Origin: Cyanobacteria bacterium auto_48_18
Lineage (GTDB): Bacteria; Cyanobacteriota; Vampirovibrionia; Obscuribacterales; Obscuribacteraceae
NCBI GenBank assembly: GCA_036170915.1
Contig: JAVHQC010000022.1
Location: 32,001-96,000 of the forward strand
DNA length: 64,000 nt
Direction: 5' to 3'
Shown here piece by piece: positions 20,599-26,891 of this stretch (positions within the stretch are counted from its first letter, which is position 1; every line of letters begins with the position of its first letter). The notes under the pieces were generated by a model. The model saw only the letters and a program-made list of their open reading frames with translations. It was not told the DNA's origin and made no database searches. A program made the position numbers and the translations under genes.

Positions 20599-21492
20599 TC
20601 AAAGAGCGCCGCCATTTGATTCACGCACTGCTTTGTAAAACTGACTACGCCTCAGCTGATTGACAAAACTTTTGCGTAGTTCCGTCGCACTCTCATCTTG
20701 CGCGTGAAAGCGCTCCATTAACTGCCTGGCTTTATCTGCACGACCACTGAAATAAAGCTGCACTAGAGTGTGATAGAGAGGCTCCCAAGTTTTTTCACTA
20801 CTTTTTACTTTCAATTCGTCTATTAATTGGTCATCTAGTTTGACTGCATTGAGCTTCTTTATAGCCGAGAGATCGACCACAAATTTATTGCGGCGCCAAA
20901 CCATTGGCACTTTTGGAAATTCATAAACTCCAGATCGCCAGTAGCGAAAAATTGCGTCTTCGAATATCAGAATTGGTTGTGATGGCCGGTTTGAGCGCAT
21001 GGTGAGCATGTGGCCGTCACCTAAAGCAAAGTGACCAATGTGGCTGAACTTGTGATTGAGTGAGTAAATATCATAGGTGTAGCAGCAGTGCGCGCCACCA
21101 GTCCACTGGCGAACAATCAATTCGTTGATGCCGTCACCAGTTAGATCAAACAATTTGATTTTTCCATGGCCTGCAAAACCCAGATTTGGATGCTCGCTGG
21201 AAGGATCCACAAGGGCAAAGTCATGCGCGCTCTGGTCGAGCAATACGCGACCGGCACGCGTCACCACCAGCCTTTTGTGAAAGTCGTCACCTGTTCTTTC
21301 TTTGATTTGAATTGTAAATTCGTCATGGCGGCCCAAGTGAAAGGTTTGATTATTGTCGGCTGCAGCCATGGCGGCCAGCGGCGCGATTATGGCTGTAAAT
21401 GATACGGCTGTGAATAGTGTAGCTGTGAACACAGCCGCCGCGAACAAACCCACGAGTGATGCGCTTTTTGGCTGATGGTGGCCTGAGGTCAT
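20599..21492 (-). CDS. exported hypothetical protein with GGAHCC motif
   Basis: Signal peptide; DLTGDGINELIV...TGGAHCC; ATGA overlap with the upstream gene. Confidence 0.8.
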   Translation of the reverse strand: MTSGHHQPKSASLVGLFAAAVFTATLFTAVSFTAIIAPLAAMAAADNNQTFHLGRHDEFTIQIKERTGDDFHKRLVVTRAGRVLLDQSAHDFALVDPSSEHPNLGFAGHGKIKLFDLTGDGINELIVRQWTGGAHCCYTYDIYSLNHKFSHIGHFALGDGHMLTMRSNRPSQPILIFEDAIFRYWRSGVYEFPKVPMVWRRNKFVVDLSAIKKLNAVKLDDQLIDELKVKSSEKTWEPLYHTLVQLYFSGRADKARQLMERFHAQDESATELRKSFVNQLRRSQFYKAVRESNGGAL

Positions 21493-22802
21493 GTTTCCGC
21501 CAGGGGCGCGTATTCTTCTTCACTTAAACCAAATGTCCAGGCCACGGCTTGTCTTGCCCGCATCATATTTGGTGGCACACGTAGAAAGTATTCTTTAATC
21601 GTTCCGTCAGGTTCTGGTGTAGAGTTTTGCACTCTCACCACAAGAATAGGCTCATCGCTGGCCAGGTTCATGCGGTATAAAATGCCGCATTGATCCTGGT
21701 GAATTTTAATAACTCGGCCTTCGCGCAAGTAATTGTCCAGGCCATATCGTTCGATCAGTACGCGGCGAATCTCAGCATTTGGTTCAGACTCGATTAAGTC
21801 AAAAGTAAGGGGTTCAGGCAACAGCACAACGTAGGCGGGCACGAGCACTCCGTGCCAGGCATAGATGCCCCAGCCATCGCGAAATTTCATGGCCATGTCG
21901 GTTTCGTTATGCAGACGACTGCGATTATCGCGGTGCAATGTCTCTGGCTTTTCGGTCAATATGCAAACATTTTCAAATGGCCACCACCAGCTGCTGGTCT
22001 TGGCTAATTCAATCAAACCGTGCAATGGTGCAGTACCTTCCACCCCAATTTGGCTGACAAAGTCATAGTAGGCGAGCCAACCGCTATCATGCTGACCAAA
22101 GCCGCCGTCCCACTTTTGCAAACCGGCAAGTACACCGGCCATGCCGGGCACCACCTGTCTGAGCGGTTCGGCAACGTAACTCCACACCTGTTGGTGCAGT
22201 GGTTTAACCAGTTCGTGATAGATTTGATCAGCAACCGCAGGCGAAAGTCTGCTGTCGATTTTTGCTTTGACCTCGCCTTCGGCCACTGCGCGAATCTGCT
22301 TGTAGACTGAGCTTCCGGCCAGTTGCCTGAGATACTTCCAGACATAAATGCCAAGATTTTCTGCGAAAAGATCCTTTACTTGTTTTTCAATGGCAATGCC
22401 ATGTTTTTCTGCAATCTTTTTTGTAGCAGCCTGGCGAATATTGCGGCGCACCGCCTGCCAGGTTTCGGGGCCAACCATTTCGCCCACAGTCTTGAGCGAT
22501 TGTTGCCAGACTTTATCCCAGACATCGACCTGTCCGGTGTTGAGCTGAGCAGGCCAATCGACGTCGCTGTAGATAAGCTTCATGGCCGTATTTCCGGCCC
22601 AGGGTGATTGCAACCAGATAAAAAGTCGCGGCGGCGCGAGACCAGCTGCGCGGTAGGCTTCTGTGGCGGCGGCTTCAGCTTGCGCGCGGTCGCTCGGGCT
22701 GGTGGAAAAACCAATTCCGCGCCACTTGATGAGGTTTTCTTCTAAAAGATGTTGATCAGCAGGAGGAAGCCAGGTGACGGGCCCACTGTCAGTCGATGAC
22801 AT
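21489..22802 (-). CDS. DUF6745-type domain protein
   Basis: WWWPFENVCILTEKP..LHRD, YAWHGV, NAEIRRVLIE, NSTPEPDGT..YFLRVPP, AVAWTFGL; likely ATG at 22802 overlapping the upstream stop. Confidence 0.85.
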   Translation of the reverse strand: MSSTDSGPVTWLPPADQHLLEENLIKWRGIGFSTSPSDRAQAEAAATEAYRAAGLAPPRLFIWLQSPWAGNTAMKLIYSDVDWPAQLNTGQVDVWDKVWQQSLKTVGEMVGPETWQAVRRNIRQAATKKIAEKHGIAIEKQVKDLFAENLGIYVWKYLRQLAGSSVYKQIRAVAEGEVKAKIDSRLSPAVADQIYHELVKPLHQQVWSYVAEPLRQVVPGMAGVLAGLQKWDGGFGQHDSGWLAYYDFVSQIGVEGTAPLHGLIELAKTSSWWWPFENVCILTEKPETLHRDNRSRLHNETDMAMKFRDGWGIYAWHGVLVPAYVVLLPEPLTFDLIESEPNAEIRRVLIERYGLDNYLREGRVIKIHQDQCGILYRMNLASDEPILVVRVQNSTPEPDGTIKEYFLRVPPNMMRARQAVAWTFGLSEEEYAPLAET

Positions 22803-23142
22803 CTCGAGGAGGCGCCTCCGGTACATATTCTCTTTGTTGCACAACGCGATAAACGCCTTCGGGCAAGAATATTGTGCCGTGCTCTTCGTGCACCAGGTTT
22901 GCACCGCCGGGTTTTGTCACTACGTACCGTTCGCCTTTGGCGGTGAAGAATGAGGCGGTGTCAGTGCTGATGGCGTGGGCGTGTCCTGTCACTTCACCAA
23001 ATTGCAAGATGATGCGCTTCTCGCATTCTACCTCTCGCGCTTCAGCCGGCAGCCTATCAATTTTTTGTACGAGCACATCACCCTGTCTGTAAGTTTGAAA
23101 CTTGATGGTTGGGCGGTCGCCTGTGCGGGTTTTTAAAAGCAT
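22789..23142 (-). CDS. small His-rich putative metal-binding beta-barrel protein, usual partner of DUF6745 genes
   Basis: YRQGDVL, GEVTGHAH, HEEH, YRVVQQREY. Confidence 0.85.
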   Translation of the reverse strand: MLLKTRTGDRPTIKFQTYRQGDVLVQKIDRLPAEAREVECEKRIILQFGEVTGHAHAISTDTASFFTAKGERYVVTKPGGANLVHEEHGTIFLPEGVYRVVQQREYVPEAPPRDVID

Positions 23143-23260: not shown

Positions 23261-24313
23261 TCAACGCATTAATGCGCGAATGCCATAACGCATGGCGTGA
23301 TTGACCGTGGTGCGAGCCACTCGCGCGCCTGTACGCTTGGCTTGGGTTTTGATTGGGTGCGCTTTTGGCGTGTTTCCAATCATGGGCTGACTGGCAAGAT
23401 CTGCACCAGGTGCGATTTTGCCTGAGGCGTCGAGATATTGCTCGTGTTTGTCATAAGTTGGCTTGCCATAGTCTGAATAATGCGCCACGTCAAAGCGCTC
23501 GTAGGGCTCAAAGGGGTGAGTCGCCATGCGTTCGTGCATGACTATGTCTACTGTTTTGACATTGCGAGGCGGAGTTTCGCCGGTGGCCGGGTTTACCGCC
23601 CTTACGTTGTAGAAGAAATCGGAGGCAGGTTTTTTGGCTTCATATTTTAAATCGAAACCTTGCATGTGACTGCGTTTGCTCATGCCCGGGTCGTGTGTGG
23701 CAATATGGGCCGTTTGCAGTTTGGCAAATTGGGCTTTTTTGTCAGCCAGGCTTAATTCTGGATTGACCCAGATAGCATTGAGCTCTTTGGCCAGACCAAA
23801 TTCGTGCGCTAAATCTTCAGCGTGCCAGTAACCGGGCAAGCAGGTCAAAATTGTGCCGTCAGCGGCCAATACAAAAATCTGCAAATTATGCGGCCCGGCG
23901 CCGTTGGTTGTATCAACCGCGGTCTCATCCGGCTTATGTTTGCCTGAAGCCCCGGCATATTTCTGATTTTCGATGTTTCTGTAGCCCACGACAAAATCGT
24001 CTTTGAGCATTGAAAAAACTGGTTCTGTTGAGAGCGACACGGCCCTCAGGCTATTGCCGGCACTTCACGTACTGCCGTCAATTTTGCCCAGCATATGCAC
24101 CCAGACAATTAATTTGCCTGACCGTGACGCCTCGATTTGAGCTTTATTGAGCGATTTGTACCACTCAACCTCGCTTACGAGCTGGTGCACTCTGGCCGAA
24201 CAAACTTCGCCACTCAGCACCTGCTTAGCGGCCTGGGCTGGAGTTGCCAGCAGGGTAAGCATGGCAAGAGCTAATGTTTGGGAACTAATTTGCCGAAAAC
24301 GCTTCTGTAGCAT
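23261..24313 (-). CDS. putative exported thioredoxin-fold (SelN-like) selenoprotein, 350 aa with in-frame TGA at codon 83
   Basis: ORFs 24065-24313 and 23261-24040 share a frame; read-through gives WYKSLNKAQIEASRSGKLIVWVHMLGKIDGST-U-SAGNSLRAVSLSTEPVFSMLKDDFV; signal peptide present. Confidence 0.7.
24029..24048 (-). promoter_or_regulatory. candidate bacterial SECIS hairpin
   Basis: TGAGGGC-CGTGTC-GCTCTCA, 7-bp stem starting 16 nt after the TGA; G at the second loop position. Confidence 0.5.
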
Positions 24314-24566: not shown

Positions 24567-26891
24567 ATGCGTGTACTTCTAGTAGAAGACAGCTTGGTGC
24601 AAGCTGACGTCGCTCGAAGCAAGCTAGAACAAAGAGGGGTAACCGTTGAGTGTGCAAAGACACTCATGGAGGCTATCGACTTTTTGCAAAATTCTGATTT
24701 TGACGTGATTCTGTTAGACCTTTCGTTGCCTGACAGTCAAGGCGTTGAGACTTTCTACCGAGTGCGCGCCGCTGCGCCTGATATTCCAACGGTTGTTTTA
24801 ACTGGAATTGACGATCAAGACGTGGCGCTCACAGCTTTGAAAAAAGGGGCGCAAGATTATCTCGTCAAAGGCCAGGCCAGTGATGACTCTGTTTATCGCT
24901 GCCTCGGTTATGCCATCGAGCGCAACAACGTAGAACTGGCGTTAATTCGCAGTGAAAAACGTTTGCGCATCATCGTCGAAAATACTTACGACGCATTTAT
25001 TTCAATGGATTCGCACTGGCGCATTACTGATTGGAACGCGCAGGCTGAGCGCACTTTCGGATATAAAAGACAGGAGGCACTGGGGCGTCCGTTATCAATG
25101 ATTGTGCCGCAGCATTTGCGCCGCCAATACACGCGAGAAGTGGCAACCTTCTTCAAAAGTGATGAAGAAGATGATTTTTCGCGCATGCATAGCGAGCTGA
25201 TGTGCACTCACAAAGACGGTCATGAATTTCCCATTGAGATGGGAATTTTTAGAGTGAGAGTGGATAACGGTTGCGTTTACTGCGCATTTGGCCGTGACAT
25301 TACCGAACGCAGACAATTGAACGAAGAACTTGAGCGCCGCGTACAGCTGCGCACCACTGAACTGACGCGCTCAAACGAAGAACTAAAGCAATTCGCTAAA
25401 ATTGCTTCACACGATTTGCAAGAGCCACTGCGGGCGGTGCAAGGATTTGTTAATTTGCTTTCTGAGAGCACAAAGGGCCAGCTCAACAAAGACTGCGAAG
25501 AGTTCATGGAATATATTCTGGATGGCACTCATCGCATGCAGCAATTAATTCAATCTGTATTGCTGCACTCAAGCATTACCAATCATGACAATGACTTCTC
25601 GGCGGCGCCGTCGACTGATGTTGATGGAGTTATCGACGAAGTTCTTGCCAACCTCGATGCTTCGATCAAGGAAAATCATGCTACTCTCGAAGTCGATAAC
25701 TTGCCTGAGGTAGCCGTTGATCGCTCGCAGCTAATTCAGCTATTTCAGAATCTGATTAGTAACGCTATCAAATATCGTGGTGATCAACCGCCGCAAATAT
25801 TCATTACAGCCGAGCGAACTGTTGATGAATGGCTGTTTTCTGTAAGAGATAACGGCATCGGCATTGATTCAAAATATGCAGATCGAATATTTGATATGTT
25901 TGCCCGTCTGCATGGCAAGACAAAGTACAAGGGCACAGGCATGGGCCTGGCCATCTGTAAAAAGATCGTCGCATTGCACGGCGGCAGAATTTGGGTGGAG
26001 TCGGAATTAGGACAGGGGTGCATATTCCTATTTACTCTACCAGCAGCAAGAAGACCCCCGAGGAGAGCGGCCATGGATACTAATATAGAAATACTTTTGT
26101 TTGAAGATACACCTTCAGATGTGCGCCTGACGCAGGAAGCGTTGAAGCGTTCTGATCTGAAATATACGCTCCAAGTTGTTAACGACGGCGTTGAAGGGAT
26201 GGATTATCTCAATGAAGTGAAGCGGTCTGAGACCAAACGCTTGCCTGATTTGATTCTTTTAGACTTGAACATGCCACGTAAAAATGGCCACGAAGTGCTG
26301 GAAGAAATCAAAAGCGATAATCATTTGAAGGGAATTCCAGTGGTGCTTCTCACTGTGTCGCAGCGCGACGAAGACGTAATGGAAGCTTTGAAGACCAAGA
26401 TGAACTACTATCTGGCTAAGCCAATTACTTCTGCCAAGCTTTCAGTGCTTGTGAGAGCCATTTGTGAATTGCAGGCTGAAAATGCCGGCGGTGAACGTCA
26501 TCCGGTAGAAGAAGAAACGCATGTGCGGCTGGTGCTGGCAGGAAATCCACACACATCACCCACAATTTTGGCCAAGCTGGCCACTGATGCCAATGCTCGT
26601 GTACGTGCTCGAGTTGGTGAGAATCCAGAAACTCCAGAGCATTTGCTGACCAAGTTGGCTGATGATGAAGATTCTGATGTACGCCTGGGCGTTTCTGAGA
26701 ACCCAAATATTCCTGCTGCACTGCTCGAGAAATTGGCTAAAGATGCCAATGAAGATGTGCGGTTGTCCATTGCCGGAAATCACAAAGTGCCTAATACGAT
26801 TCTATCGGCCCTGGCCGAAGACCAGAACACCTTTGTGGCCGCTGGTGCAACTAAAACACTAGCTGAACTGGCAAGCGGTTCGCGGTCTTAG
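24567..26891 (+). CDS. hybrid histidine kinase: REC-PAS-HisKA-HATPase-REC-LRV/HEAT repeats
   Basis: LLDLSLPD; ASHDLQEPLR H-box; NLISNAIKY; GTGMGL; Rcp1-like LLDLNMPRKNG; C-terminal VRxxVxENPxxPxxLLxKLAxD repeats. Confidence 0.93.
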   Translation: MRVLLVEDSLVQADVARSKLEQRGVTVECAKTLMEAIDFLQNSDFDVILLDLSLPDSQGVETFYRVRAAAPDIPTVVLTGIDDQDVALTALKKGAQDYLVKGQASDDSVYRCLGYAIERNNVELALIRSEKRLRIIVENTYDAFISMDSHWRITDWNAQAERTFGYKRQEALGRPLSMIVPQHLRRQYTREVATFFKSDEEDDFSRMHSELMCTHKDGHEFPIEMGIFRVRVDNGCVYCAFGRDITERRQLNEELERRVQLRTTELTRSNEELKQFAKIASHDLQEPLRAVQGFVNLLSESTKGQLNKDCEEFMEYILDGTHRMQQLIQSVLLHSSITNHDNDFSAAPSTDVDGVIDEVLANLDASIKENHATLEVDNLPEVAVDRSQLIQLFQNLISNAIKYRGDQPPQIFITAERTVDEWLFSVRDNGIGIDSKYADRIFDMFARLHGKTKYKGTGMGLAICKKIVALHGGRIWVESELGQGCIFLFTLPAARRPPRRAAMDTNIEILLFEDTPSDVRLTQEALKRSDLKYTLQVVNDGVEGMDYLNEVKRSETKRLPDLILLDLNMPRKNGHEVLEEIKSDNHLKGIPVVLLTVSQRDEDVMEALKTKMNYYLAKPITSAKLSVLVRAICELQAENAGGERHPVEEETHVRLVLAGNPHTSPTILAKLATDANARVRARVGENPETPEHLLTKLADDEDSDVRLGVSENPNIPAALLEKLAKDANEDVRLSIAGNHKVPNTILSALAEDQNTFVAAGATKTLAELASGSRS

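Follow-up and report, generated by a model that had tools for sequence, protein, structure and literature searches.

Does the TGA triplet at 24067..24065, on the minus strand of a 64,000-nucleotide (nt) stretch of contig JAVHQC010000022.1 from Cyanobacteria bacterium auto_48_18 (the whole stretch is called the window below), end a short gene, or does it encode selenocysteine (Sec) inside a longer one? An open reading frame (ORF) of 82 amino acids (aa) with an ATG start, 24313..24065 on the minus strand, terminates at this triplet. Only eight sense codons further on (S A G N S L R A), in the same frame, there begins an ORF of 259 aa, which under translation table 11 starts at GTG 24040 and runs to the stop TGA 23263..23261. 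An earlier note, made from the letters of this DNA, had described just such an arrangement and had proposed that the two ORFs make up one exported selenoprotein of about 350 aa; the ORF list and its translations confirm the arrangement, and the context quoted there matches the 350-residue read-through protein (P0001) obtained when the TGA is translated as U, which reads ...KIDGST-U-SAGNSLRAVSLS... around the Sec. The proposal as a whole is supported by the homologue column, by the presence of tRNA-Sec, selB and selD in the genome and by a single predicted fold. We consider it highly probable that SelB, guided by a selenocysteine insertion sequence (SECIS), directs the insertion of Sec at codon 83 of one exported selenoprotein gene of roughly 350 residues. 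This reading draws strong support from a conserved UGA, from Sec/Cys pairing, from a hairpin whose synonymous sites are frozen, from the predicted fold and from the presence of most of the Sec machinery.

What do relatives carry at the position of the TGA? A word-indexed search returned 188 homologues, of which 120 were listed; most of these 120 are 245-265 aa long and cover the last 70-75% of the query, i.e. the downstream ORF alone, and a few are full length. All homologues go by the name of ‘hypothetical protein’ in public databases. At the DNA level, 198 stretches were matched in a scan that took one genome from each prokaryotic species; 146 of them encode relatives, and the best 80 loci, whose titles are mostly those of Obscuribacterales, Melainabacteria or Obscuribacter metagenome-assembled genomes (MAGs), were kept. 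The tblastn match spans the column in 79 of these 80 (L054 begins inside the gene), and the codon found there is TGA in 77, TGC in one (L055) and TGT in one (L056), with frame and spacing around the TGA constant across all loci. Among 21 related genomes, the family occurs in 16, including 12 of 12 from the same genus and 3 of 3 from a second family of the order; it was not found in the five genomes searched from other families of the class. All 39 matches in these genomes that cover the column contain exactly one TGA, and six stop-free matches are partial pieces that fall short of it. The genome of the window has three paralogues, each carrying one TGA at the column; L101 (C16:90999-91928) and L102 (C22:441468-442337), both at 47% identity, retain the TGA together with the hairpin core described below, and the open frame of L102 extends to 466 aa with a long additional C-terminal tail. 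In an alignment of 41 sequences with 38-87% identity, W51, A62, K67, G76, G80 and T82 are invariant before the TGA and many columns are likewise invariant after it. Relatives thus have either TGA or Cys at the column and are conserved on both of its flanks, the outcome that the earlier note had named as a check, and neither a nonsense mutation nor a faulty assembly nor a pair of independent genes can explain such invariance. A pseudogene, or a nonsense codon created in sequencing or assembly, is admittedly what a lone in-frame stop within a MAG brings to mind; yet the same TGA recurs in those 77 loci from independent assemblies, in the 39 matches in relatives and in the three paralogues, and purifying selection acts on both of its flanks, so that this explanation, to which we leave practically no probability, is refuted by the comparative data.

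How, then, has such a gene been annotated? An exhaustive HMMER search with a profile of the 41 sequences found 1051 cluster representatives at E <= 0.001, and the best 150 were re-aligned. Only 11 of these 150 span the column; 126 have their start beyond it and 13 stop immediately ahead of it. Gene callers do split the gene, as had been predicted, and with 139 of the 150 cut at the Sec column, public databases record the protein as two fragments and its family goes unrecognised as a selenoprotein. The 11 spanning representatives have Cys (five), Trp (two), Ala (two), Pro (one) or Ser (one) at the column, some of the Cys forms being annotated from Planctomycetota. Database proteins that carry Cys there include P0007, P0020, P0127, P0165, P0172, P0257 and P0264. 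The Trp forms are products of a code-4-style table applied to TGA; the DNA of locus L096, the counterpart of one of them, reads TGA. Ser is found at the column in P0016 and P0017, near kin of the Cys loci L055 and L056, and Ala or Pro in more distant relatives of Planctomycetota type.

Could the gene callers nevertheless be right, and the locus consist of two genes, one for a small exported peptide of 82 aa and another for a cytoplasmic protein of 259 aa beginning at GTG 24040? These are exactly the table 11 calls, the ends of the 126 and 13 truncated representatives agree with them, and a GAGG stands just ahead of the GTG. However, the predicted fold is continuous over the TGA, with strand 1 before it and helix 1 after it, neither frame nor spacing varies among the loci, full-length Cys forms exist, and the downstream starts that have been called vary between homologues. 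The GAGG and the GTG, moreover, are the hairpin itself and lie 3 nt apart, and most members have GAGA instead. A pair of separate genes is, in our judgement, extremely improbable.

What would instruct the ribosome to decode this one UGA as Sec? Within the ORF, as in bacterial SECIS elements of the Escherichia coli fdhF type, a hairpin lies just downstream of the UGA: it begins 17 nt past the codon and has 7 bp in the window copy, and its conserved core, GAGRGC-CGUGUC-GCUCUC, occupies the positions 20-37 nt after the T of the TGA as a 6-bp stem with a 6-nt loop. Its minimum free energy (MFE) of -8.8 kcal/mol corresponds to a z of -2.6 against shuffles, and in 77 distinct sequences 98.7% of the cells are paired, a figure that falls to 40-67% once the partner is shifted by 1-3 columns. 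The codons that form it, 91-94 (A V S L), are almost frozen (GCC in 77 of 77, GTG in 78 of 78, TCG in 74 of 76 and CTC in 74 of 78; entropy 0-0.29 bits), whereas comparably conserved residues with four- or six-fold degeneracy elsewhere in the gene have codon entropies of about 1.1-2.4 bits. The two Cys loci, L055 and L056, use the synonymous codons GCG GTC TCA/TCT CTT at 91-94, and there the hairpin is not formed. No conserved extension of the stem at its base is seen; folds of 48 nt differ from one paralogue to another. The bacterial SECIS (bSECIS) consensus, as given in the part of a 2026 prokaryotic selenoprotein catalogue that deals with it, has a loop of 3-9 nt, a stem of 4-16 bp, 16-37 nt from UGA to loop, a G as first or second base of the loop and an MFE of -7.5 or lower (PMC13188914). 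The family hairpin, with its 6-nt loop, stem of 6-7 bp, spacing of 23 nt, MFE of -8.8 and a loop that starts C-G-U (G as the second base, U next), agrees with all four criteria set out there (PMC13188914). Unlike the usual bacterial SECIS, it is nearly invariant in sequence despite divergence of the protein to about 40% identity, and this makes it a simple search signature for further family members. In a whole-genome scan for the same type of loop after an in-frame TGA, 12 matches were obtained; three are the paralogues and the remaining nine showed no family context upon inspection.

Is the joined product a plausible protein? AlphaFold2, run on the 41-sequence alignment, returned a model with a mean predicted local distance difference test score (pLDDT) of 87.4 and a predicted template modelling score (pTM) of 0.81, in which strand 68-74 is followed by Sec83, helix 84-93, strands 107-113, 144-149 and 154-160, and helix 165-182. 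The earlier note had placed the TGA after the first core strand of a thioredoxin fold, and the model agrees: one confident thioredoxin-fold unit is predicted across the TGA, an assignment that is secure for the fold class, and the Sec takes the position of the attacking Cys of CxxC, at the N-terminus of helix 1. Also as stated in that note, the site is T-U rather than CxxU; it reads T-U-S-A-G, without a second Cys in the motif, and a Thr codon (ACN) directly precedes the TGA in 80 of 80 Sec-bearing sequences. In the TTNGAGPHN motif, T135, N137, G138, G140 and N143 are invariant among the 41 sequences and A139, P141 and H142 nearly so; its codons vary freely, implying that the constraint acts on the protein, and by analogy the motif probably forms the cis-proline loop beside the active site. 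In CLPGYW, P160, G161 and W163 are invariant and C158 is present in 90% or more of the same sequences. Beyond the thioredoxin-like domain, a conserved, family-specific C-terminal domain of 165 residues has the invariant R214, S215, D221, E225, D256, M259, H260, R262 and G283, and no fold match for this domain was found among solved structures. The other end of the protein resembles a signal peptide, as do the N-termini of nearly all homologues, and the model has a low-confidence helix at residues 6-21 within it; from these features, cleavage of the signal peptide and export of the 350-residue protein are predicted.

To which branch of the thioredoxin-like proteins does the domain belong? In a VIA-align run of the model against 48,161 Protein Data Bank (PDB) representatives, the matches were a DsbD-like C-terminal domain (3f9u, 10.2), a thioredoxin of Thermus thermophilus (2lst, 9.0), one domain of a conserved protein of Methanosarcina mazei (3ira, 8.4), AGR3 (3ph9, 8.1), a thioredoxin-fold protein of Helicobacter pylori (4fyb, 8.1), DsbH (2ju5, 7.8), DsbD-gamma (1vrs, 7.7) and two UAS domains (2ec4, 7.4, and 2dlx, 7.0); the best Foldseek E was only 1.5e-3. 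Judged by these model comparisons, no single thioredoxin-like family stands out as the closest. Compared with domains of the Thioredoxin_7, DsbD-gamma, DsbH, AGR2-AGR3 and UAS types (3f9u, 1vrs, 2ju5, 7tkv, 3ph9, 2ec4, 2dlx), identity is 10-20%, and, unlike them, the family has Sec in place of Cys and an extra C-terminal domain. Sequence profiles gave nothing closer: the joined protein had no meaningful match in Pfam and NCBIfam even at E up to 1, none to the thioredoxin-clan models of Pfam (e.g. PF13899) at the same limit, and none in a profile search of the PDB with an E limit of 10. In the ESM Atlas, the Cys homologue P0007 met only ‘hypothetical’ clusters at 0.93, with Cyanobacteriota as the commonest phylum, and clusters of Thioredoxin_7 type at 0.77-0.80, which are leads only.

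Does the organism possess the means to insert Sec? Its genome has a tRNA-Sec scoring 75.8 bits (gathering score 47), to which ARAGORN assigns the anticodon tca, as well as selB (333 bits) and selD (364 bits). The tRNA-Sec shares contig C16 with the paralogue L101, some 21 kb away, and is therefore not a binning accident. Does the TGA have another meaning throughout this genome? It ends 590 of the 2234 genome ORFs of at least 300 aa (26%) and 11 of the 37 window ORFs of at least 250 aa, and it also ends the selenoprotein gene itself; TGA is thus a normal stop genome-wide, the code is the standard one and recoding is local, which bears out what the earlier note had assumed.

Several observations weigh against the insertion of Sec or against what follows from it. 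The first concerns the machinery, for which the earlier note had suggested a search: tRNA-Sec, selB and selD were found, but selA was not found by TIGR00474 or PF03841 in the 86%-complete assembly. Because of this incompleteness, and because 11 of 12 genomes from the same genus encode a selA scoring about 520 bits, the missing gene is provisionally read as a probable assembly gap. The second concerns the hairpin: no compensatory changes occur in the 77 distinct sequences, only A-U/G-U alternation, and a scan of 23950-24120 against Rfam, at E up to 10, gave four noise matches and no SECIS family. Since the hairpin is nearly invariant, covariation is uninformative either way, and its support comes from the frozen synonymous sites. 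Further, no RNA sequencing run containing the stretch was found, and Ser, Ala or Pro stands at the column in some distant relatives, indicating that a redox residue is no prerequisite of the fold. As for the chemistry, a few members with Sec (L044, L066, L097) have Ala or Val in place of C158, which therefore cannot be essential, and the gene neighbourhood in the 80 loci offers no functional partner or pathway; because Cys158 is not universal and the neighbourhood is uninformative, the chemistry set out below is something that we infer.

Do these points favour a UGA that is read through without Sec, by a near-cognate Trp or Cys tRNA or by a suppressor tRNA, with the hairpin as a mere stimulator? 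The missing selA and the want of covariation would suit such an event, as would the two family members that public gene callers have translated with Trp at the column. Those Trp forms, however, are explained by translation tables, given the TGA in L096, and close relatives exchange the column only with Cys, the classic signature of Sec. The genome, in addition, encodes tRNA-Sec, selB and selD and its congeners encode selA, the hairpin fits the SelB-type bSECIS rules as far as the catalogue sets them out (PMC13188914), and TGA serves as an ordinary stop throughout the genome. Read-through of this kind is, in sum, very unlikely.

How might Sec insertion proceed, and to what end? On meeting the UGA at codon 83, the ribosome would encounter the hairpin, whose loop begins 23 nt downstream and which would recruit SelB together with Sec-tRNA(Sec), the binding of SelB being a prediction; Sec would be put in without termination, and translation would run on to the true stop, again a TGA. 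The signal peptide would then bring about export, presumably yielding a periplasmic thioredoxin-fold protein. There, the Sec might attack a disulfide, a sulfenic acid or a peroxide of a substrate, and the resulting selenenyl-sulfide or selenenic acid might be resolved by Cys158, which may act as the resolving partner, or by an outside thiol. It seems somewhat more probable than otherwise that the product is an exported, periplasmic thioredoxin-fold oxidoreductase with a single selenol.

Has a selenoprotein of this kind been described before? The 2026 catalogue lists 119 prokaryotic families in its Table 1 (PMC13188914). No matching row was seen in that table, though the supplements of its source papers could hold the family (PMC13188914). 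The absence of Pfam and NCBIfam models matters here because most of the catalogue families are defined by such models. The thioredoxin-fold entries of Table 1 include a Sec-thioredoxin with UxxC, a PF13098 thiol:disulfide interchange protein and an NF041199 Trx7/PDZ protein with CxxU (PMC13188914). The family shares with these entries, as they appear in the table, the Sec at the redox position, an in-ORF hairpin that would recode the UGA and the existence of Cys homologues; it differs from them in its T-U-S-A site without a second Cys or Sec, in its 165-residue C-terminal domain and in its Obscuribacterales lineage (PMC13188914). The words ‘cyanobacteria’, ‘melainabacteria’ and ‘obscuribacter’ do not occur in the main text of the catalogue (PMC13188914). 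A full-text literature search found no selenoprotein paper mentioning Obscuribacter, and the selenoprotein papers that mention Melainabacteria deal, going by their titles, only with nutrition or gut microbiota. Taken together, the family appears to be a large and uncatalogued group of thioredoxin-fold bacterial selenoproteins with an in-ORF SECIS, and it adds to the prokaryotic selenoproteome beyond Pfam, NCBIfam and the 119 families of that table. It does so in a lineage of non-photosynthetic Cyanobacteriota (Obscuribacterales) for which no selenoprotein paper was found.

What, finally, of selenoprotein N (SelN; SELENON), which the context of the TGA had brought to mind? In SelN, a Cys directly precedes the Sec (a C-U pair), in contrast to the Thr of all 80 Sec-bearing family sequences. 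The human SelN sequence may share with the family an ungapped run of agreeing positions after the Sec and another about 70 residues on, a putative resemblance that is a lead only. Those passages of PMC10650576 that concern its architecture describe SELENON as having a Sec-bearing thioredoxin-type domain that faces an oxidising compartment, an EF-hand and an N-terminal type II membrane anchor. The family protein would share the first of these features; by contrast, Pfam finds no EF-hand in it, and its N-terminus is signal-peptide-like, ending in an AxA-type site, rather than an anchor of type II (PMC10650576). No homologue named SELENON was among the database matches, and no longer fused forms of 708-2020 aa were found at E up to 10, a weak negative since that range excludes proteins of the size of SelN. 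The full-text search found no paper joining SELENON and the UAS domain, and the literature joining SELENON with ‘bacterial homolog’ consisted, as far as it was covered, of unrelated papers only. The protein is not filed as a member of the SelN family. It is possible, and we put it forward tentatively as the less probable alternative, that the family, with its Cys relatives annotated from Planctomycetota, is a true bacterial homologue of the thioredoxin-like domain of SelN with the Sec at the homologous position; if so, these soluble bacterial proteins, present in several copies, would serve as a simple model for the chemistry of a protein involved in human muscle disease.

Why would such an organism retain the Sec trait? 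FdhA is, according to the parts of the catalogue that treat its distribution, the most widespread bacterial selenoprotein (PMC13188914), and a search of the 86%-complete genome assembly with the FdhA model (TIGR01553) gave no match. Exported selenoproteins of the present kind, rather than formate dehydrogenase, may therefore maintain the Sec trait in this organism. Were this true, the whole Sec machinery would have been kept without any formate dehydrogenase, mainly in the service of exported selenoproteins.

How the family came by its Sec and Cys forms is suggested by a quick maximum-likelihood tree with a midpoint root, confined to 52 rows (the 41 aligned sequences and 11 database proteins) with the other homologues excluded. 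The Obscuribacterales sequences form one clade, with a Shimodaira-Hasegawa-like approximate likelihood ratio test (SH-aLRT) support of 97; the Cys/Ser group of L055, L056 and P0016 is sister to the subclade of the window gene (94), and the Cys-bearing P0007 is sister to the Sec-bearing L038 (98). Cys forms and forms without a redox residue, in part annotated as Planctomycetota, make up the deeper branches. The nesting of Cys and Ser forms in the Sec clade suggests that Sec was replaced by Cys within the lineage, with loss of the hairpin, although the direction of change is not proven by this tree.

Loci were also found in MAGs titled as other phyla, namely L042 and L057 (Bryobacterales), L037, L047, L052 and others (Proteobacteria), L050 (Actinobacteria), L099 (Fimbriimonas) and L034, L045 and L066 (names of photosynthetic cyanobacteria). 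These loci group among the Obscuribacterales in the tree, which could reflect mislabelled records or a transfer of the genes.

Features of the selenoprotein locus and its neighbours, in window positions
Feature	Position	Strand	Basis or description
Whole gene of the probable selenoprotein	23261..24313	-	ATG 24313..24311, internal Sec codon, stop TGA 23263..23261; 350 residues
In-frame UGA, very probably read as selenocysteine, residue 83	24065..24067	-	TGA/Cys conservation among relatives
Signal-peptide-like N-terminus, residues 1-28	24230..24313	-	Basic n-region, hydrophobic core, ...PAQA then AK, from the translation
Predicted thioredoxin-like domain, about residues 35-185	23759..24211	-	Predicted structure
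TTNGAGPHN, residues 135-143	23885..23911	-	Most conserved protein motif, just ahead of strand 144-149
CLPGYW, residues 158-163	23825..23842	-	Where strand 154-160 ends
Family-specific C-terminal domain, residues 186-350	23264..23758	-	Conserved domain of 165 residues
SECIS-like hairpin	24029..24048	-	Stem 24048-24042 pairs with 24035-24029; apical loop CGUGUC 24041-24036
Hybrid sensor histidine kinase	24567-26891	+	Divergent, 774 aa; two receiver domains, PAS, HisKA/HATPase, LRV/HEAT repeats
DUF6745 protein, downstream	21489-22904	-	471 aa
ORF, downstream	22789-23142	-	117 aa; no Pfam match; overlaps the DUF6745 gene

A promoter scan at the gene detected no promoter-like site, and a terminator scan gave one plus-strand terminator-like site inside the gene, which did not rise above shuffled controls. 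Around the gene, the hybrid sensor histidine kinase adjoins it in 18 of the 80 loci, all of them close kin of the window copy, and the two downstream neighbours, the DUF6745 gene and the 117-aa ORF, lie near it in 11 and 13 of the 80, respectively, in both cases in close relatives only.

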